Shown: one piece after another, positions 25,325 to 62,534 of the stretch
Position numbering within the stretch: position 1 is the stretch's first letter
How the letters are laid out: each line of letters starts with the position of its first letter
Source of the DNA: Lytechinus pictus
Taxonomy: Eukaryota
Length of the DNA stretch: 64,000 nt
Direction of reading: 5' to 3'
Assembly (NCBI RefSeq): GCF_037042905.1
Contig: NC_087252.1
Span: forward strand, 1,118,001-1,182,000
Made by a program: the position numbers and the translations under genes
Notes under the pieces: model-generated
Told to the model about the DNA's origin: nothing
The model's input: the letters and a program-made list of their open reading frames with translations, nothing else
Database searches by the model: none

Positions 25325-25499
25325 ATGAAATACAGCACAATGGCTCTTTCAGGTCCACTCCTCCTGCTTGCTGTGTTGTTGGGTATATGTCAAGCCAAAG
25401 TCAACTTCCCGAAGGACAACAGGGTGGATGTGGAGTTTCCTCCGAAGATCACCTACAGGAAAGATGGTGTCATTTCAACTGGGCATCTTAGACCGTTTG
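25325..25499 (+). CDS. Gene B (ER-luminal JmjC/cupin_8 oxygenase with EF-hand and HDEL) exon 1: signal peptide
   Basis: MKYSTMALSGPLLLLAVLLGICQA-KVNF... A strong acceptor lies just upstream (25311), implying an upstream non-coding exon. Donor G|gtaggt, phase 1. Confidence 0.85.
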
Positions 25500-25835: not shown

Positions 25836-26137
25836 TTAGTGGTGATTGATGGTGGATAATAGTGACTGCCCCAATGATTATGGTGATATACATGTACATG
25901 TATGTGATGATTAAAATTGTAATGCCAGAGATCATGATGATGATGATGAAACATTAAGATAATCATTATTGATGAATACTGGTCTAACAGACATAAAACA
26001 GTCTTACCAATCATTTACTTTCCATACCAATAGTAATAACCATCTACTTACTGAAATTCCACCATACACAGAATTCCCACTGACACTGACAGACATGACT
26101 CACATAAACTCCTAACTCCCTCCTTCTCTTTTTGCAG

Positions 26138-26303
26138 GATACCAAAAGAAACCTACGAGTCGTGTCAGGGAATACAGGGAGCCGCTTCCTCCTAAGAACT
26201 TCTGGGAGGACCATGTCCGTCACCGGGAGCCTTGCGTCTATAGGGGCGCTGTCACCGATTCGCCAGCAATGACAAACTGGACTGATGACTACTTGAATAA
26301 AGA
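26138..26303 (+). CDS. Gene B exon 2 (YQKKP...FWEDHVRHREPCVYRGA...WTDDYLNKE)
   Basis: tttttgcag acceptor, GA|gtaatt donor, phase 1-2. Contains the cupin_8 N-terminal motif (F...P.V..G......W...YL). Confidence 0.9.
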
Positions 26304-26327
26304 GTAATTTGGTTCAAGGAGATTTAA

Positions 26328-27083
26328 CCCTAACTAGGCCGGGCTTTTTTGGCTGTTCTGTGGCCGGGGGGGTTGATTCAACCCCCCCTGAGATTTCGGC
26401 CGCCGATCACGCGAGCACCGCAAAAATTTGCATGCTGGTAGTGTGCGATGTAATCTACAAGGCTGTATGGTTAATTTTTCCAAAATAATGAGATTTTATT
26501 TTATATGAATTAATTATGCTAATTTGTGCATAAATCATACTTTTTGCTCTAATTCACTAAATAAAGCTCCTAGAATGCTAATTTTTGGTAAAAATATTCT
26601 TTGTAGCATTCTTAACAATGGCAATTGAAAAAAACTTCGGTTTGGAAATCAATTTCTTATGTATTTTATTGTTTTATGAATTTCTTATGTATTTCACTGT
26701 TTTTCAACCTTTTGTTTTTCTTTGTTTTTTTCACCAGATTTATTGCACAACCTTTTTGAAGCATAATTATGCTAAAATCAATTGATTTCAGCTGTTTAAA
26801 GTAAAAATAATCATATCTTTATGAATAAGATGAGAAAACTCAATTTGCATTGACTTTGTATACAAAATCATGTTTTGGAACAATTTTTAGTCTGACATGC
26901 ACTTACAAAATGTTGCGTAATTTCGGAACTGCGTACCCGGGCGTCGTAAATTTGGTGTCAAAAGATGCGCGAGACTTAAAAGTATAAACTCTGCAAATGG
27001 CGCGGTCAAAAAATTTCGCGCGGCGGAATGATCGCAGAAAATGTTGAGGGGGGGTTGATTCAACCCCCCCGGCCTGTTTAGGG
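26328..27083. mobile_element. piggyBac-like MITE, 24 nt downstream of the exon-2 donor of gene B
   Basis: TTAA|ccctaactaggccgg ... ccggcctgtttaggg|TTAA, with a subterminal ggggggttgattcaacccccc hairpin at both ends. Confidence 0.88.
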
Positions 27084-28304
27084 TTAAGATTGGGGAGTCT
27101 GATTTTTTTTCCTAATCTGTTCAAACTATATTATTTTTAGCCTGGAGTACCCCTTCAAATACTCCAAAATGAACATAATAGGAAAACTTATTTTTCACAT
27201 ATAATAATCTGGTCATTTTATAGGGCGCCAAGATATATTCGTAAAATATCTATACACTAGAAATTGGTCATTCCAACACATGACTTTACATGTATGCACA
27301 TCCCTCAATTCCCTGGGAAGTATTGTCATTACTATGTTGCATTATTATTGTTGTTATTATTATTTTCATTATTATTAGTAGTAGTAGAATAGTAGTAGTA
27401 GTAGTAGTAGTAGTAGAGGTTCTATGATATTTGCTCCAGCGAAATTTGCTCCGCTCTAAATTCCACACACTAATCGAATGACCAACTTCAACCCTGGGTT
27501 TAACACTATACCCTACCCTACAACTACAGATAAAACCCTATTGCAACCCTAAACCTTAGTCGAAATTAAGCCCGGAGCAATTGTCGCAAGAGCAAATGTC
27601 ATATCACTGTAGTAGTAGTAATAGTACTAGTGGTAGTGTTACTACTACTACTACTACTATTGTTATCATCACTATCATTACTTGGAGGGCCACTTCCATT
27701 GATGAGTGGATACTAGGCCTGACCAAAGAAACGCGTAAAAAGGATCTCTTTTTCAAGAATTGGCACGTTACGTACGTAACATGATAAGGGTGTCAAAAAC
27801 ACTAAAATACTGAAGAAAAGGGTATATTTGATATTTTGATAGGAAAGCTATAGGTTTACGGTCAAATTTGCGTGGGTATAAAAAAGATTGAAATGCTTTA
27901 TAAAGGATGTATTCTTTGCCCCAACACTTAATATGTTCAGAGTCCGATTGGGCGAGGTGTGGGAGGTGGGGTGGTACTAAACCCAGTGTTAGTAAAGGTA
28001 CAGCCGACATCCGTGATCACGTCATAACAATTAAAATATCGGCGTCCTTGTTTTAGGGGTCATTCAGGGAATATTTGTCAAGAGTACCGTTTTGATTCCA
28101 ATATTTGTTATGGGTAGGGTTTTATACGCCAATGGGGATGCATTTTCAGAATATGGAAAACACTTGTTTAGGGTGCTTTTCGAAACCTCATGGTTGCGCC
28201 TGGTATCCCCTTGTCAACATAAGTGCCCCCCCCCCCCCGGTATCATTATTATGTTGCATCATACTATTTATAGTATTATGTAACTTTTTTCATCCTCGAC
28301 CCAG

Positions 28305-28458
28305 GTACGGTGACCTTGATGTCTTGGTAGAGTTAAAAAAGGAGCAGCGAGGATCCAGAAACAAAAGAATGAAGATCTCCAAGTTCCTGAGCCATTATGG
28401 TGTTGAAGACTGGTATGTGGTGACAGTTCTACCGGACGAGATGAGACATGAAATACAG
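28305..28458 (+). CDS. Gene B exon 3 (YGDLDVLVELKKE...DEMRHEIQ)
   Basis: cccag acceptor, CAG|gtgatt donor, phase 2-0. Lies within ORF 28105..28488. Confidence 0.9.
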
Positions 28459-29029
28459 GTGATTCACCTATTCATCCAATCAGATTGAAGGATTTCAGTA
28501 GCTTTTAACTGTTATTGTAAATTTGCTATTGTATCAGGTTTTATGAAACTGCCCCAATGGTGCAGCAGCAGGTGCTCCCAAATGATTTTTCCAGAAGTGA
28601 AAAAAGAAAGAAGAAGAAACAGGGGGAAAGGAAGAAAGAAGATCAGAAAAAAGAGTTTGCCAAATTGAGAATAAATATCATTACATTCAGGTCATCACCC
28701 CCCCCCCCCCCATCAAAATATCCCTGTGCCGTTCCTGACACTTACCGTAGCAGATTCTAATTCGACCAATAAAATTTCTTTCACTTTCCTATTATTTGTA
28801 TATCTACTAAAAGGATATTCAAAAACTTTTTTTAATATTTTCAAGTCTTCAAAATAAATATTTCATTTCTTGTTATGTTGTAATATTAAGTGCAAACAGT
28901 TTTTTTGGTTCAGACAGGAATCACCTGAGCTTTTCAGACTAAGCTATACCTTTTTTTTAAAAAGATATCTGCATTAGAAAATTTGTGTTTCTTTACCACC
29001 AAATTAAAGAGAGGTACATGTAGACGTAA

Positions 29030-32000
29030 TTCTCTATCTCTTTCATGGTGGTTTATTTCTAGGAACCCGATAGCTTGTTGTGTGGAAACTTCAAGTGGTT
29101 CATGATTATCAATCTCTTTCATTGTGGTATTTGCAAGGTACCCAAACCCTGCTGTGTGATACCTTCAAAATAGCATATGATTACCAATCTCTCTCATTGT
29201 GGTTCTTTGCTAGGTACCCAAACCCTGCTGTGTGGTACCTTCAAAATAGCATATGATTATCAATCTCTTTCATTGTGGTATTTGCAAGGTACCCAAACCC
29301 TGCTGTGTGATACCTTCAAAATAGCATATGATTACCAATCTCTTTCATTGTGGTTCTTTGCTAGGTACCCAAACCCTGCTGTGTGGTACCTTCAAAATAG
29401 CATATGATTATCAATCTCTTTCATTGTGGTATTTGCAAGGTACCCAAACCCTGCTGTGTGATACCTTCAAAATAGCATATGATTATCAATCTCTTTCATT
29501 GTGGTTCTTTGCTAGGTACCCAAACCCTGCTGTGTGATACCTTCAAAATAGCATATGATTATCAATCTCTTTCATTGTGGTATTTGCAAGGTACCCAAAC
29601 CCTGCTGTGTGATACCTTCAAAATAGCATATGATTACCAATCTCTTTCATTGTGGTATTTGCAAGGTACCCAAACCCTGCTGTGTGATACCTTCAAAATA
29701 GCATATGATTATCAATCTCTTTCATTGTGGTATTTGCAAGGTACCCAAACCCTGCTGTGTGGTACCTTCAAAATAGCATATGATTATCAATCTCTTTCAT
29801 TGTGGTTCTTTGCTAGGTACCCAAACCCTGCTGTGTGATACCTTCAAAATAGCATATGATTATCAATCTCTTTCATTGTGGTATTTGCAAGGTACCCAAA
29901 CCCTGCTGTGTGGTACCTTCAAAATAGCATATGATTATCAATCTCTTTCATTGTGGTATTTGCAAGGTACCCAAACCCTGCTGTGTGATACCTTCAAAAT
30001 AGCATATGATTATCAATCTCTTTCATTGTGGTTCTTTGCTAGGTACCCAAACCCTGCTGTGTGGTACCTTCAAAATAGCATATGATTATCAATCTCTTTC
30101 ATTGTGGTTCTTTGCTAGGTACCCAAACCCTGCTGTGTGGTACCTTCAAAATAGCATATGATTATCAATCTCTTTCATTGTGGTATTTGCAAGGTACCCA
30201 AACCCTGCTGTGTGATACCTTCAAAATAGCATATGATTACCAATCTCTTTCATTGTGGTTCTTTGCTAGGTACCCAAACCCTGCTGTGTGATACCTTCAA
30301 AATAGCATATGATTATCAATCTCTTTCATTGTGGTATTTGCAAGGTACCCAAACCCTGCTGTGTGATACCTTCAAAATAGCATATGATTATCAATCTCTT
30401 TCATTGTGGTATTTGCAAGGTACCCAAACCCTGCTGTGTGGTACCTTCAAAATAGCATATGATTACCAATCTCTTTCATTGTGGTATTTGCAAGGTACCC
30501 AAACCCTGCTGTGTGGTACCTTCAAAATAGCATATGATTATCAATCTCTTTCATTGTGGTATTTGCAAGGTACCCAAACCCTGCTGTGTGATACCTTCAA
30601 AATAGCATATGATTACCAATCTCTTTCATTGTGGTTCTTTGCTAGGTACCCAAACCCTGCTGTGTGATACCTTCAAAATAGCATATGATTATCAATCTCT
30701 TTCATTGTGGTATTTGCAAGGTACCCAAACCCTGCTGTGTGGTACCTTCAAAATAGCATATGATTATCAATCTCTTTCATTGTGGTATTTGCAAGGTACC
30801 CAAACCCTGCTGTGTGATACCTTCAAAATAGCATATGATTACCAATCTCTTTCATTGTGGTTCTTTGCTAGGTACCCAAACCCTGCTGTGTGATACCTTC
30901 AAAATAGCATATGATTATCAATCTCTTTCATTGTGGTATTTGCAAGGTACCCAAACCCTGCTGTGTGGTACCTTCAAAATAGCATATGATTATCAATCTC
31001 TTTCATTGTGGTTCTTTGCTAGGTACCCAAACCCTGCTGTGTGATACCTTCAAAATAGCATATGATTATCAATCTCTTTCATTGTGGTATTTGCAAGGTA
31101 CCCAAACCCTGCTGTGTGGTACCTTCAAAATAGCATATGATTACCAATCTCTTTCATTGTGGTTCTTTGCTAGGTACCCAAACCCTGCTGTGTGGTACCT
31201 TCAAAATAGCATATGATTATCAATCTCTTTCATTGTGGTATTTGCAAGGTACCCAAACCCTGCTGTGTGATACCTTCAAAATGGCATATAATTACCAATC
31301 TCTTTCATTGTGGTATTTGCAAGGTACCCAAACCCTGCTGTGTGATACCTTCAAAATAGCATATGATTATCAATCTCTTTCATTGTGGTTCTTTGCTAGG
31401 TACCCAAACCCTGCTGTGTGATACCTTCAAAATAGCATATGATTATCAATCTCTTTCATTGTGGTATTTGCAAGGTACCCAAACCCTGCTGTGTGATACC
31501 TTCAAAATAGCATATGATTATCAATCTCTTTCATTGTGGTATTTGCTAGGTACCCAAACCCTGCTGTGTGATACCTTCAAAATAGCATATGATTATCAAT
31601 CTCTTTCATTGTGGTTCTTTGCTAGGTACCCAAACCCTGCTGTGTGGTACCTTCAAAATAGCATATAATTACCAATCTCTTTCATTGTGGTTCTTTGCTA
31701 GGTACCCAAACCCTGCTGTGTGGTACCTTCAAAATAGCATATGATTATCAATCTCTTTCATTGTGGTTCTTTGCTAGGTACCCAAACCCTGCTGTGTGGT
31801 ACCTTCAAAATAGCATATGATTATCAATCTCTTTCATTGTGGTTCTTTGCTAGGTACCCAAACCCTGCTGTGTGGTACCTTCAAAATAGCATATGATTAT
31901 CAATCTCTTTCATTGTGGTTCTTTGCTAGGTACCCAAACCCTGCTGTGTGATACCTTCAAAATAGCATATGATTATCAATCTCTTTCATTGTGGTTCTTT

Positions 32001-33984
32001 GCTAGGTACCCAAACCCTGCTGTGTGATACCTTCAAAATAGCATATGATTATCAATCTCTTTCATTGTGGTTCTTTGCTAGGTACCCAAACCCTGCTGTG
32101 TGGTACCTTCAAAATAGCATATGATTACCAATCTCTCTCATTGTGGTTCTTTGCTAGGTACCCAAACCCTGCTGTGTGGTACCTTCAAAATAGCATATGA
32201 TTATCAATCTCTTTCATTGTGGTTCTTTGCTAGGTACCCAAACCCTGCTGTGTGGTACCTTCAAAATAGCATATGATTATCAATCTCTTTCATTGTGGTA
32301 TTTGCAAGGTACCCAAACCCTGCTGTGTGGTACCTTCAAAATAGCATATGATTATCAATCTCTTTCATTGTGGTTCTTTGCTAGGTACCCAAACCCTGCT
32401 GTGTGATACCTTCAAAATAGCATATGATTATCAATCTCTTTCATTGTGGTTCTTTGCTAGGTACCCAAACCCTGCTGTGTGGTACCTTCAAAATAGCATA
32501 TGATTACCAATCTCTCTCATTGTGGTTCTTTGCTAGGTACCCAAACCCTGCTGTGTGGTACCTTCAAAATAGCATATGATTATCAATCTCTTTCATTGTG
32601 GTTCTTTGCTAGGTACCCAAACCCTGCTGTGTGGTACCTTCAAAATAGCATATGATTATCAATCTCTTTCATTGTGGTTCTTTGCTAGGTACCCAAACCC
32701 TGCTGTGTGGTACCTTCAAAATAGCATATGATTATCAATCTCTTTCATTGTGGTTCTTTGCTAGGTACCCAAAACCTGCTGTGTGATACCTTCAAAATAG
32801 CATATGATTATCAATCTCTTTCATTGTGGTTCTTTGCTAGGTACCCAAACCCTGCTGTGTGGTACCTTCAAAATAGCATATAATTACCAATCTCTTTCAT
32901 TGTGGTATTTGCAAGGTACCCAAACCCTGCTGTGTGGTACCTTCAAAATGGCATATAATTACCAATCTCTCTCATTGTGGTTCTTTGCTAGGTACCCAAA
33001 CCCTGCTGTGTGGTACCTTCAAAATAGCATATGATTATCAATCTCTTTCATTGTGGTTCTTTGCTAGGTACCCAAACCCTGCTGTGTGGTACCTTCAAAA
33101 TAGCATATGATTATCAATCTCTTTCATTGTGGTTCTTTGCTAGGTACCCAAACCCTGCTGTGTGGTACCTTCAAAATAGCATATGATTATCAATCTCTTT
33201 CATTGTGGTTCTTTGCTAGGTACCCAAACCCTGCTGTGTGATACCTTCAAAATAGCATATGATTATCAATCTCTTTCATTGTGGTTCTTTGCTAGGTACC
33301 CAAACCCTGCTGTGTGGTACCTTCAAAATGGCATATAATTACCAATCTCTCTCATTGTGGTTCTTTGCTAGGTACCCAAACCCTGCTGTGTGGTACCTTC
33401 AAAATAGCATATGATTATCAATCTCTTTCATTGTGGTTCTTTGCTAGGTACCCAAACCCTGCTGTGTGGTACCTTCAAAATAGCATATGATTATCAATCT
33501 CTTTCATTGTGGTTCTTTGCTAGGTACCCAAACCCTGCTGTGTGGTACCTTCAAAATAGCATATGATTATCAATCTCTTTCATTGTGGTTCTTTGCTAGG
33601 TACCCAAACCCTGCTGTGTGATACCTTCAAAATAGCATATGATTATCAATCTCTTTCATTGTGGTTCTTTGCTAGGTACCCAAACCCTGCTGTGTGGTAC
33701 CTTCAAAATAGCATATGATTATCAATCTCTTTCATTGTGGTTCTTTGCTAGGTACCCAAAAACTGCTGTTTGGTACCTTCAAATGGCACATTATTGTCTA
33801 TCTCTTTCATTGTGGTTCTTTGCTAGGTACCCAAACCCTGCTGTGTGGTACATGTACCTTCAAAATAGCATATGATTATCAATCTCTTTCATTGTGGTTC
33901 TTTGCTAGGTACCCAAACCCTGCTGTGTGGTACCTTCAAAATGGCATATAATTACCAATCTCTTTCATTGTGGTTCTTTGCTAG
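29030..33984 (+). repeat. Intronic minisatellite, about 64 x 75/76 bp, derived from the exon-4 3' splice junction of gene B
   Basis: Unit ...tctttcattgtgg(ttctttgctag/tatttgcaag)|gtacccaaaccctgctgtgtg(g/a)taccttcaaaatagcatatgattatcaatc runs directly into the true exon gtacccaagagcctgctatgtggtaccttcaag. Confidence 0.97.
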
Positions 33985-34176
33985 GTACCCAAGAGCCTGC
34001 TATGTGGTACCTTCAAGCGGTTCATCCAGGAGACCAACCTATGGATCAGCAGCGGAGGAACAGCATCGGTCATCCACTATGACGCTGATCACAACCTTCA
34101 CTGCCTACTGGCTGGGAAAAAGAACTTCATCATGATACACCCAAAGTTTGCCAAGTACTTGGAAATGGCAGAAAAG
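33985..34176 (+). CDS. Gene B exon 4: catalytic HxD (VPKSLLCGTFKRFIQETNLWISSGGTASVIHYDADHNLHCLLAGKKNFIMIHP...)
   Basis: tttgctag acceptor, AAG|gtaagg donor, 192 nt, phase 0-0. FIH/JMJD5/TYW5-like pattern LW....T...HYD...N......G.K. Confidence 0.92.
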
Positions 34177-40396: not shown

Positions 40397-41249
40397 TTTT
40401 GTCTCGCCCACCAGAGGTGAAGGCGAGACTTACAGTTTTTGTAGGGATCCAAATGTCGTCCGTCGTCCGTCTGTCACAAACCTAATGACAAAGCTCCACA
40501 ACCATAAGTCGCTTTTGAACTAAACTTGGATGGTAGATGGTTGGGGGACCTGCATGTTATGCTGCAGTCGGAGGTCTCACGGTAAGGTCAAAGGTCATTT
40601 TCAGGTCAACGTTAAAAATTTCATGCAGATCAACATTAAAGTTTACATGCAAGACTCTCTTATGACACCTAACTCCGCAACCGTAAGTTACTTTTCAACC
40701 AAACTTGGATGGTAGATGGACTTGAGGGACCCGCATGTTATGCTACAGTCGGAGATCACATGGTGAGGTCAAAGGTCATTTTCAGGTCAACGTTAAAGTT
40801 TGCATGCAAGACTCTTATGACACTTAACTCCGCAACCGTAAGTCGCTTTTCAACCAAACTTGGATGGTAGATGGACTTGGGGGACCTGCATGTTATGCTG
40901 CAGTCAGAGGTCACATGATAAGGTCAAAGGTCAATTTCAGGTCAATGTTAAAGTTTACATGCAAAACTCTCTTATGAGACCTAATTCCGCAACCGTAAGA
41001 CACTTTTCAATAAAACTTGGATGGTAGATATACTTAGGCGACCTGCATGTTGTGCTGCAGTCGGAGGTCACATGGTAAGGTCAAAGGTAATTTTCAGGTC
41101 AACATTAAAGTTTACGTGCAAGGCTCTTATTCCATCCCAGTCATTTCACAATAAAGTTTTGATACAATTCTGTTGCGTGCCCTCGCAAATCACAATATTT
41201 CTGGTTATTTTCATAAGTGGACGAGACGCAAAATCGCTTTTGCCTTGTT
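40397..41249 (+). mobile_element. Helentron-associated (HINE/DINE-1-like) element with four ~156-bp internal tandem repeats
   Basis: Inserted in a T-run. 5' gtctcgcc..ggcgagac inverted repeat, (GTCC/GTCT) microsatellite, 3' subTIR gacgagac and gcaaaatcgcttttgc hairpin. Absent from the left arm. Confidence 0.75.
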
Positions 41250-41539: not shown

Positions 41540-42075
41540 GGTATCTTTTTATAGAACCTTATTTTTTCTGATCTTGATTTTACAAACTTGATGTTAATAT
41601 GATCTACATGTACCTATTCCAGTCTTTGGGCTTTGTCTCGATGTTTATATTACCTACATTGTCACGGCCCTATATTTGGGTCCGGAAAGAAAAGAGAGAG
41701 GTAGACTTGTGAACGGATACTCAGTACAACAAAACCCTGACACTTTGAGTAAATTTTATAATAACATTTAATTAATGATGTATACAAAAGTATTTGTTCC
41801 AATCCTCATAGACACAACAGTTATTGATTTTTTCATTCCTTTTATTTTAGCCCTTTTTTGAAGAATCTGGCTATTCTAAAGTTGATGTTGAAATGATCAA
41901 CTTGTTCTTGTAGCTGAGTTTCAGTTTTTCTTGGATGTCTATATAACCAATGTGTTTTATAACCGATTGATATTCATCACATTGCTTGCATATTTCCTTT
42001 TATTTCTGCCCTTTCTTGTTGGATCTGGCTATTCTCAACTTGATATTGATGTGACCGCCATGTTCAAATACACTT
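41540..42075 (+). repeat. Three degenerate copies of the exon-5 acceptor and exon start of gene B (pseudo-exons)
   Basis: 41851 reads PFFEESGYSKVDVEMINLFL*, 42009 reads PFLVGSGYSQLDIDVTAMFKY, and a weaker copy lies at ~41555. The real exon reads PNFVGSGYSKLDVDMINMFQY. Confidence 0.85.
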
Positions 42076-42148: not shown

Positions 42149-42405
42149 GGGGCCCGTCTTACAAAGATTTGCGATTGATCTGATCAATCACAACTATAGA
42201 TGGCCAGCAGCATCAACATCTATGTTTGTTCAAAATATCTTCTAACTATGATTTGTATTCATGCATTCCATGTTTTCTTGAAAATTCACTGTGCTTCTCA
42301 TTGTTTACCAAGGACATTTGTGCAAATTTCCAGTAGAAAAAATTATGACACTGATGGATTTCCATAGAGTCACGATCAATCGTAACTCTTTGTAAGACGG
42401 GCCCA
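42149..42405. mobile_element. Short MITE; a related copy at about 47115-47749 contains a nested MITE at about 47171-47341 in the putative 3' UTR of gene B
   Basis: gggcccgtcttacaaaga / tctttgtaagacgggccc TIR with CWG-type flanks. Confidence 0.75.
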
Positions 42406-42489: not shown

Positions 42490-42622
42490 CCCAATTTTGT
42501 CGGATCTGGTTATTCTAAACTTGACGTTGATATGATCAATATGTTTCAGTATCCCGACGTAGCTAAAGTCCAGTGGACCTGGGCAACACTCAATCCTGGT
42601 GATTGTCTATATATTCCCGCAG
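42490..42622 (+). CDS. Gene B exon 5 (PNFVGSGYSKLDVDMINMFQYPDVAKVQWTWATLNPGDCLYIPA)
   Basis: ctctttcag acceptor, G|gtaagg donor, phase 0-1. Contains the JmjC L.PGD.LYIP motif. Confidence 0.92.
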
Positions 42623-43906: not shown

Positions 43907-44070
43907 GTTATCTACACCAGGTTCGTTCTCATGGCAGGAGTGTATCAGCTACCATTCTCTTCACATCTCTGCCCACGTTTGATGACTCAGACTGTAGCAG
44001 AGATGTTATAAATACCTACACCGGTCTGGATGAGGTCAGAGTTCTCTGGACATATAAAAAGGGAGACAGA
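43907..44070 (+). CDS. Gene B exon 6: distal metal-binding His (GYLHQVRS...)
   Basis: atccag acceptor, AGA|gtgagt donor, phase 1-0. The ..H.V.S JmjC motif completes the HxD...H triad. Confidence 0.92.
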
Positions 44071-45685: not shown

Positions 45686-45859
45686 GTGATTGAGATGGGT
45701 TACATGAACCCTGAAGCTCTCCGAGACAGTTTTCTCACACTGCTCGGAGAATCCCATCAACTCAACTTTGAGAAGTTCAAGTATTACTTCATGGATATCA
45801 CCAAAGAGGATGAAGATGAGACAAACTCCAGGGATATAGAGTATCCGATGGCTGAAGAG
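45686..45859 (+). CDS. Gene B exon 7 (VIEMGYMNPEALRD...YPMAEE)
   Basis: (CT)n tract + taaag acceptor, GAG|gtatgg donor, 174 nt, phase 0-0. Confidence 0.88.
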
Positions 45860-46917: not shown

Positions 46918-47064
46918 GCTTTTAAGATGTTTGACCATGAAAACAAAGGTTACGTTACGAGAGAAGAAATCGTAGAGATGGACGTGGAGTACTTCAAAGA
47001 CTTTGCCAGGATCCTAGATCTTCCAAGCGGTCCCACTGCAGACGATATGCACGATGAGTTATAA
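46918..47064 (+). CDS. Gene B terminal exon: EF-hand (DHENKGYVTREE) and C-terminal HDEL
   Basis: aatccag acceptor; AFKMFDHENKGYVTREEIVEM...DDMHDEL-TAA. Joined CDS is 1305 nt = 434 aa + stop. Confidence 0.9.
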   Translation, partial: AFKMFDHENKGYVTREEIVEMDVEYFKDFARILDLPSGPTADDMHDEL

Positions 47065-48267
47065 CCTCTAGCTCTTCTAGTACCCCTTCAGTCACGCCTC
47101 TGAAACTGGCTCCAGGGCTCCTGTCTTACAAAGAGTCTCGACTGATCTGATCAAACGCAAATGTGGAACTGGGGGCGATTTCATAAAGCTGTTTGTAAGT
47201 GAAGAGCGACTTTAAGAACGACTGGTGATCCTTTCTTATGTGCTAAACCATCGCTAATGAATATACCATTTACCACAAGAAAGGATCACCAGTCGTTCTT
47301 AAAGTCGCCTCAACTTACAAACAGCTCTATGAAACACCCACCAGATGTGTTCAAACTGTTTTCTAGATATCTGATGTATACTCATGCATTCATTGTTGTC
47401 TTGACAATTTGGTGTGTTCCTCTTTGTTTACAAAGGACATTGTGCAAACTGCATGCAGAGCTGCCAAGTGGTACTGGTTTTCAGTAATTATTACTGAAAA
47501 ATGAGAAAAAATACTGGTGGTTTCATGCAAATTACTGATTTCTAAAGTGTCAGTTAATGCGTCTTATGGTATTTCTGTGGAAATACTGATTTTCTCACCA
47601 AAATACTGATTTTCAGCCTTTCAAAAAATAGTGAAATGTTCTTGATCAGGTTGGCATCTCTGTTTCTGTAGTAAAAGATTATGACAGTGATGGATTTCTA
47701 CAGAGTTGAGGTTGATTGAATCAGTTGCAACTCTTGGTAAGACAGGGCCCAGATCGATCAAGATCGTTGACAGACTATCGGTTGGTTGGGGTAAGTTTCA
47801 TTGGTGCGAGTGAAACCTTATTTATTGTAGACTGTCAGGATTTGATGTCTTGTAATAGCTTTCTATTGTATCTTGGATGGGGGTGGTTTGGGGGTACCAT
47901 GACATTTGCTCCGGTAACAATTGCTCTGCTCGAAATTCCATCTATTAATAGAATGACCAACTTGAACCCTGGATTTAACACTATACCCTACCTTAAGACT
48001 AACCCTAAACCAAACATAAACCCCTAATGCAACTCTAACCCTATATCATAGATGAAATAAAGCTTGGAGCAAAAGTTGTGTGACCGGGTTTTGTGTCAGT
48101 GCCTTGAAATTGTATAAACAGATTCTAATTTTATATAGCACAACTAAAAAAAAGAACTTTTCTTGTAATTTTAGTTAAATCAGAGAGAGAGAAAATACTG
48201 GTAACTTATAACCATTGAACTCTACAACAGATAATAGCCTAGAATTGCGCTAGAATATGAATTTGGG

Positions 48268-60340: not shown

Positions 60341-62534
60341 TATCGTAGTGAATAAAGTAAAAGGAAGATCGGAGGTGATACATTTTCGTAAGACTCCTGC
60401 CTTATTTCTTGTTTATGTGTTCGTATGACAGACGTGGTTGTGCTCGGTAATGATAAAAATGATGCTGATGATTGAAATAACGGTGATAATGTTGACGATG
60501 ATAATGTTTGAAATAATTGTGAGATGTTGATATGATACTGCTGTGAAAGATAATAAGCCCGTTCGTAGTTCCACTCTGCGCATGATCTGAAGATTCTGCG
60601 CATGATCAGAGGAAGTTCATTTGTACTTAAGTGACACGGTGGTTTGAAATTTAATGAGATAAGCACCAACTACATGTCTCGATTATTCATATATTCTTTT
60701 TAATTGTGTTTTTCATTTACATCTCTAAAAATACAACAATGCGTTCACAAACGACTGGTATTTCACGGTTGCCAAGTACATTGTACAACATGCTATATAA
60801 TTATGCATTCAAAGTAGAAATGCAATTGATACCGTCATAGATTGTTAATTGATGTGATATTCTAGTCACCTGGTCCATTCAATTTCTTCATCCCGCTATG
60901 TAAGGCATGCATACGCAATATCTTGCTTTGAAATCTGCCTATCTTAATGAAAAAAATGAAAGGTCATTTGACCAAAATTGTTCATGAAGTAACTACGAAC
61001 TGGTCTATAGCGCTGATTTTGATGATGCTAATGTTTGAAATAGGGCCTACGTATGAAGGGTATATTCATTAGCTAGGTTAGGGTAAAATCCATTTATTTA
61101 GGGTCAGGGTAAAGTCTATTTCATTAGGGTCAGGGTAAAGTCAATTTCGATGTGAATGTGTGTGTTTGAAATATGTAAAGGGTAAAGTCCATTTCATTAG
61201 GGTAAGTCCAGACAGTCAAACTAATTATAAAAAAAAAACATCCATTCGCTCGTGTACAAAAAATACCCTACTACTTTTTTCTAAGTCCGCTATAACTTTC
61301 TCCTAATAAAAGATATCCCATTCACTCTTGTACAAAAAATATCCATCAGAATTGTTTGAAGTCCACAATGCCTTTCTCGTAATAAACTCTGCCTCATTCA
61401 CTCGTGTACTAATTCAAAACGTGTGTACTACTTATGGGATGCCCATGTTGAGTCGAACACAATGAAATAAAGACAAACTTGTGAGTTCTTGAATGACGAC
61501 AACAATTAAAATTGTATCTATAATACCAAGAGGTCTGGCATTTTGATTTATTCAAAATATGAAATGATGCGATAAAACACAATAAAATATTGGGTTGTAT
61601 TATGGTACTGACAATACAATATGCATGATTGGTCTTGGTTATATACATGCTATATACGGGTCGCTAATACCACGAGTACAGTGCATTTCTTACTAAATGC
61701 CTTTAGCTCACAGATTAAGTACTAGCTCACCCATAAAATTCAACGGTTGAATTCGTATTATTTGTACAATCAATGTTTACGCCACTAGCGTACCTACGGG
61801 GGGGGGGGACAGATGGGGCAGACCACCCCCCCCCCTCTATATTCAGTTGGGTTTAACGGTTTAAAGTTTAATGGTGAACCCGAGCACAAATCACAAATAG
61901 GCCTAATCACTCCTTTGTGGTGAGTGTTGAATGTAGATAACAACAATACAATGTTCGGCGAGCTCAGAGAAACAAATTATATGAAATGTAATATTTCGTC
62001 ACCTTACTTAATAAAACTAAAACATGACAGAACTTGAACATTCAAAATATATACTTTTTTCTGGTGGGTTGACCAAGGAGATATCACTCCTTGGGTTGAC
62101 AAACCTTTGAGTACCACTGTACATGTAATAAATATACATGTATATAAGCGTACCACAGACACATTTTCGTGCCAATATTGCACTTGTTATACAATCGCAA
62201 TAATTCATTTTTCTTATGCAGGCTTACGAGTGGATCAAAATTAGGTTAATTTCCCGACGAGGGGCACTCGGCGGATTTTGAACGGGAAGGGGTATGCGCG
62301 GTCCCAAAGTCTGAAACCACACCCTTGCGGAACTGGACTTGCTTTGAAATGAGGAGCTTAAGAACAATATAGCCCTCTGCAAACGGGGGTGATTGGGGAC
62401 TGGAATTTAACATGAAGAGAACTTCAAGAACTGACTCAATTTGATGGGGGCGGGGAGAATGGTTTCGTCAATGAAAAAGGGTGAAAACGATCTCCCTGGT
62501 AGTTGCTTGCGAGCCGTGGAAAGGGGTCCTTTAA

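Follow-up and report, generated by a model that had tools for sequence, protein, structure and literature searches.

Tandem repeats spanning exon-intron boundaries have been described in amphioxus, where such "mirages" consist of tandem copies of the boundaries in Adh3 and in globin genes, BflGb6 and BflGb9 among them (PMC3087553), to which troponin C and PGBD5 were added (PMC3902484). According to the accessible text of PMC3087553, the units of described mirages measure 10-160 bp, the mechanism by which repeats are seeded at junctions is called unclear, and the BflGb6 mirage, laid out as acceptor plus exon start, evolves in concert except at its edges and appears to be spliced normally. Repeated donors are known from the 37-bp variable number tandem repeat (VNTR) in intron 7 of human F7, where 5-9 identical donor sites are present and only the first is used (PMC1557585, accessible part). 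Here we describe a stretch of 64,000 nucleotides from the sea urchin Lytechinus pictus (assembly GCF_037042905.1, contig NC_087252.1, positions 1,118,001 to 1,182,000 of the forward strand; hereafter the window, whose own numbering is used throughout), in which intron 3 of a gene encoding a JmjC/cupin_8 protein carries the intron 3/exon 4 junction in 65 additional copies arranged head to tail. In our view this array is quite probably a tolerated minisatellite without a regulatory role; it is a real and very large mirage of the type known from lancelets, and likely a neutral one.

The array was located with Tandem Repeats Finder (TRF; period 76, 65.9 copies, 95% matches, score 8805), and cutting at the junction motif gave 66 AG sites, namely 65 decoys and the true acceptor ending at 33984 (copy number as assembled). 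The term "decoy", used in a preliminary description of this locus, implies a function, and no function was seen. The features of the array and its borders are as follows:

28459-33984, plus strand: intron 3, 5526 nt, 89.7% array (gene model)
29029-34016, plus strand: minisatellite across the junction, units of 75/76 bp, 65 decoys and the true acceptor (TRF, motif cutting)
29030-29137, plus strand: diverged 5' edge, with the oldest acceptor copy (AG ends at 29062) and unit 1 (exon 4 alignment)
33752-33984, plus strand: units 63-65, two of them diverged, with the working acceptor derived from unit 65 (unit comparison)
33985-34176, plus strand: exon 4, HYD motif, begins GTACCC, donor AAG/GTAAGG (gene model, homologues)

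The preliminary description had reported copies of the acceptor and of the start of exon 4 filling almost 90% of the intron, and both statements hold for the measured array, which spans about 5 kb. Its units are 75 or 76 nt long (a single one has 82 nt) and comprise 20 distinct sequences among 65 units. The unit head, said to be 1 nt shorter than the exon, does carry one deletion, along with three substitutions, relative to the first 33 nt of exon 4 (29 positions of the consensus are identical). That the upstream sequence of the true acceptor recurs in dozens of decoys is correct for 36/65, which are identical to it over at least 25 nt (mostly 29 nt, and at least 40 nt in 1/65), but not for the 22/65 that possess a different, more purine-rich acceptor (GGTATTTGCAAG), located mostly in the 5' half of the array. 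The AG is kept in every one of the 65 decoys and, a point absent from the earlier account, AG is directly followed by GT at the true site and in 64 of them, unit 1 having AG/GA instead. A splice to any of the 65 decoys, with the downstream units kept in the mRNA, would run into a stop codon, after 11 codons in 58 cases and after 13-64 codons in the other seven. Units of the AAAATGGC type had been thought to shift the frame, which is not true of all of them, since unit 30 stays in frame up to the stop in the following unit. We also considered the array as coding sequence and rejected this, its frames being broken by stops (the longest listed stop-to-stop frame there has 145 aa).

The host gene was modeled with eight exons, GT-AG introns, and a single open frame of 429 residues, 428 of which (99.8%) are identical to the L. 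pictus protein XP_054760227.1. Besides exon 4, its exons are:

25340-25499, plus strand: coding exon 1, N-terminus resembling a signal peptide; the start of the database protein lies 5 codons upstream, at 25325 (gene model, homologues)
26138-26303, plus strand: exon 2 (gene model, homologues, contig in sequencing run X1)
28305-28458, plus strand: exon 3, donor CAG/GTGATT (gene model, homologues; directly after exon 2 on the X1 contig)
42490-42622, plus strand: exon 5 (gene model, homologues)
43907-44070, plus strand: exon 6, distal His of the JmjC triad (gene model, homologues)
45686-45859, plus strand: exon 7 (gene model, homologues)
46918-47064, plus strand: exon 8, EF-hand-like stretch and C-terminal HDEL (gene model, Pfam)

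The host protein is 75-78% identical to proteins of S. purpuratus and Diadema, and in the proteins of all three urchins the junction between exon 3 and true exon 4 is read straight through. Pfam matches to Cupin_8 (E 2.4e-34) and JmjC (E 2.1e-6) were obtained, and the nearest solved structure is JMJD5 (E 7e-14). The preliminary description had placed the metal ligands exclusively behind the final AG; the HxD motif (HYD, residue 191 of the model) does lie in exon 4, whereas the distal His is encoded by exon 6; the HxD...H triad is kept. With these features the protein resembles JMJD5/JMJD7/TYW5-like cupin_8 oxygenases, from which it differs by a signal-peptide-like start, an EF-hand-like stretch (a weak match under the Pfam cut-off), and a C-terminal HDEL. 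An (H/R)DEL C-terminus is present in 8/8 listed relatives, six of which combine an HDEL-type tail with a hydrophobic start. Judging from these termini, the protein, like its family, is predicted to be located in the lumen of the endoplasmic reticulum, and the automatic label "lysine demethylase 8-like" is probably wrong.

How the last of 66 similar acceptors may be chosen is best explained by exon definition, which had already been suggested for this locus and which is likely, although it is only inferred in the urchin. The spliceosome would pair the strong donor of exon 4 with the closest AG upstream of it, a position that always falls to the last copy, and inner copies, having no good donor within exon distance, would leave with the intron. 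In a crude count against the consensus, donor 4 matches U1 at 7/9 positions compared with at most 5/9 for any GT in the unit. The exon measured from the true AG has 192 nt; if one of the last three decoys were used, it would have 268, 350, or 425 nt. The remaining internal exons of the gene have 133-174 nt. In human data, exon-defined sites that are closest across the exon are preferred (PMC9225289, accessible part). Purine-rich enhancer motifs, in a crude count that is only suggestive, number 5.7 per 100 nt in exon 4 and 0 in the unit. Should an inner copy be used on rare occasions, the resulting transcript would meet one of the computed stops and would probably be degraded, a loss to the gene and not a function.

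Two other candidate discriminators were set aside. An AGGUACC/GGUACCU hairpin covers the AG both in the true junction (z -0.74) and in a common decoy (z -1.93) and is missing from two other units, so it fails to distinguish the true site (four junctions out of 66 were folded). The zone free of AG is 74 nt long at the true acceptor versus 37-40 nt in 61/65 decoys; we did not count this as evidence, considering that four decoys share the long zone, that the additional AG is placed 5' of the probable branch region, and that edge units tend to retain old alleles. At the DNA level, the inverted repeat AGGTACC...GGTACCT extends across the junction (33975-34015) in the true site and in most array units, and it could have promoted the first slippage.

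The composition of the array provides some information on its history. Unit 1 retains 41 nt of likeness to exon 4 (32/41 identical) without a frameshift, and judging by this match the founding duplication was probably one of about 75 bp across the junction; a piece of about 34 intron and 41 exon bases would thus have been duplicated in tandem. Slippage or unequal exchange may then have multiplied and homogenised the inner copies, whereas the edges drifted. Within the core (units 2-62) just 9 of the 76 columns vary and two units differ on average by 2.7, and relative to the consensus unit 1 differs at 17 columns, unit 63 at 9, and unit 64 at 6. Neighboring units are more similar than distant ones (Mantel rho 0.16, p 0.0005, 2000 permutations), and three linked variants travel together through the units. 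Judged by the sequence, this combination of homogenised core, diverged edges, and positional gradient fits ordinary minisatellite turnover. We had also considered retention of the AG as a mark of selection and dropped it, since variation is limited to 9/76 columns.

When all 14 splice junctions of the gene were compared with the window, copies were found at two of them, namely the acceptors of exons 4 and 5. The copies of the exon 5 acceptor, likewise absent from the preliminary description, lie in intron 4:

41561-41611, plus strand: decayed copy of the exon 5 acceptor and exon start (78-79% identity for the three copies)
41825-41906, plus strand: decayed copy of the same junction, the only one that keeps its AG
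41993-42054, plus strand: decayed copy of the same junction

These copies score 43.7-62.6 bits, compared with a maximum of 32.8 in 100 shuffles. Their exon part begins with CC and not with GT, and the AG has been lost in 2/3 of them, which suggests that such junction copies, if left alone, would decay, splice signal included. Taken together, the array and the intron 4 set would represent junction copies of two ages within one gene. Other repeats were noted in the same region: a short element with terminal inverted repeats (recognized by eye) occupies about 42150-42405, downstream of the last old copy and ahead of the true acceptor of exon 5, and a piece resembling it occurs near 47660-47770; a tandem repeat of 157 bp at 40494-41130 in intron 4, whose 3-4 copies are 83-87% alike, matches none of the junctions of the gene. 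Outside the gene, there is a weak two-copy repeat of 76 bp at 61230-61412, where an adjoining exon is not evident on reading.

To look at transcripts, four sequencing runs (of 23 listed) were mapped on 26100-29213, a region that takes in exons 2 and 3 and continues across the unique start of intron 3 as far as decoy units 1-2. They were the contigs of run X1 (RNA by guess), two raw RNA runs depleted of ribosomal RNA (rRNA; out of three identified by species label), and one DNA-type run from a related organism. None of the listed runs that contain the 3' stretch is recorded as RNA. At the setting of 90% identity, reads from any common unit are expected to map on unit 2. Depth on 29012-29213, that is, on decoy units 1-2, was zero in 4/4 runs including 3/3 RNA runs, the exon depth of the raw runs being only about 1-2.6x. 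A 1467-nt contig of X1 carries exon 2 followed by exon 3, departs at the exon 3 donor, and has nothing on units 1-2. The length of its other part, 957 nt, would accommodate exons 4-8 (810 nt) and a short tail, from which we infer that it probably uses the true acceptor. Exon reads in the two raw rRNA-depleted runs derive from a plus-strand transcript. By rough estimate, each raw run should contain about 10 array reads had 20% of the transcripts carried half of the array, and about 2 at 5% decoy use. Heavy steady-state use of decoys is therefore unlikely if the sampled animals carry a similar array, and a low level of use, or one hidden by nonsense-mediated decay (NMD), is compatible with the data. 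The DNA run of the related organism is uninformative on conservation, since part of exon 3 has zero depth in it just as units 1-2 do. Introns 2 and 3 (26330-28600) are rich in high-copy interspersed repeats that attract hundreds of unrelated RNA reads, and the joints and loose ends listed all belong to these repeats.

Several points weigh against a tolerated array without a regulatory role. The RNA test is weak at the depth of the two raw runs, and no exon 2-3 joint was among the joints listed for them (117 more lie beyond the listing). Contigs drop rare forms, and the sequenced animals may carry a shorter allele. The AG is invariant, although this is expected by chance with so few variable columns; a stop codon has swept through the core, which, like the invariance of AG/GT, is also compatible with selection.

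It is also conceivable that inner AGs are used and the error corrects itself: each splice to a decoy would rebuild a donor (CAG/GTACCC), which would be spliced again to a later AG, so that the intron is removed stepwise and the array is free to grow without cost. Recursive splicing does work via juxtaposed AG/GT (PMC8605326, accessible part), a juxtaposition found in all decoys except unit 1, and the rebuilt donor, with a U1 match of 6/9, falls inside the range of 5-8/9 observed for the seven real donors of the gene. The intron 4 copies, with their CC exon start, stayed few and decayed, which is one contrast only. However, the AG/GT is simply inherited from the first codon of exon 4, and 4/7 acceptors of the gene have it. 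GTACCC is far from near-consensus ratchet donors, with no U1 match at +4 to +6, and by the same crude count its 6/9 is not a strong donor; nor is the intron, with 5526 nt, one of tens of kb, the described ratchet points lying in introns of about 50-73 kb (same source). The same rebuilt junction arises at the true exon, where re-splicing must be avoided, and in 2/2 raw runs depleted of rRNA, whose exon depth was only about 2x, no intermediate reads were detected on units 1-2. Stepwise removal of this intron is very improbable in our judgment, and we are just as doubtful of the general form of the idea, according to which exons starting with GT let acceptor mirages reach dozens of copies as wrong splices rebuild donors and get corrected. 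If it were true, the array would form a ladder of 64 recursive splice sites that arose from a repeat, and AG/GT junctions should be enriched among the longest mirages genome-wide.

The preliminary description had suggested a possible regulatory role, in which some transcripts would be spliced to inner AGs and lost to NMD, so that copy number would tune the share of productive mRNA and set expression. The stops in 65/65 decoys are premature and lie far upstream of later junctions, the sequence of the true acceptor is present over at least 25 nt in 36/65 decoys, and tandem repeats in humans are able to shift splicing (PMC10078293, accessible part). On the other hand, the stops are a trivial outcome once a non-coding copy has lost 1 nt, two of the three older intron 4 copies have lost their AG, and described mirages leave the mRNA unaltered as far as the accessible text of PMC3087553 and PMC3902484 goes. 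With neither reads nor contigs on decoy units in 3/3 RNA runs, at low depth, tuning by copy number found no support, and we hold this role to be very improbable. Finally, an assembly error, by which an array real in kind was inflated in length or mis-joined, is very improbable: the one DNA-type run mapped, that of the related organism, has zero depth on units 1-2, which proves nothing given its holes in exon 3, whereas the 20 unit types, the three linked variants, the positional gradient, the diverged edges, a longest exact internal match of just 416 nt, and a window without any N speak for the assembly, and the turnover pattern argues against a pure artefact.

The tolerated minisatellite which we prefer is a single case, ordinary in kind and extreme in size. 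It offers a natural test of acceptor choice, in which up to 65 look-alikes precede the real site in transcription, 36 of them matching it exactly over 25 nt or more; the donor array of F7 has already been used to dissect donor choice, according to the accessible part of its source. The case also raises the question why repeats seed so often at splice junctions in marine invertebrates. In the open literature (subscription papers and supplements being outside the search) we found no echinoderm mirage, and only the amphioxus papers were relevant.

The comparison with these systems, as far as the accessible parts of the cited papers allow, may be summarized as follows. The kinship with amphioxus mirages proposed earlier was confirmed in the four features tested: the urchin unit likewise spans an exon-intron boundary of its host gene, its 75/76 bp falls inside the range of 10-160 bp, the splice signal is kept in many units (the AG in 65/65 urchin decoys), and a homogenised core, with 9 variable columns in the urchin, is flanked by diverged edges. 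The layout of acceptor plus exon start is the same as in BflGb6. Apparently normal mRNA is reported for the amphioxus genes; in the urchin silence of the extra sites is weakly shown, with no RNA on decoy units in 3/3 RNA runs (about 2x in the raw runs) and with database proteins that use the true junction. The differences concern the host, which is an echinoderm here, the AG/GT of nearly all urchin units, and above all the size, with 65 extra copies over 5 kb in the urchin versus 3-6 units in BflGb6 and 2-7 in PGBD5. The Drosophila ratchet points (PMC8605326) share with 64/65 urchin decoys the juxtaposition of AG and GT inside an intron; however, they are single and conserved, with near-consensus donors, very long introns, and a cryptic exon, whereas the urchin sites are 64 weak, repeat-derived ones within 5.5 kb for which no use was seen. 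The F7 VNTR is also a junction-spanning repeat with identical competing sites, of which the site adjoining the real exon is used; but donors are repeated there and the first one transcribed wins, whereas in the urchin the acceptors are repeated and the last one must win after up to 65 look-alikes.

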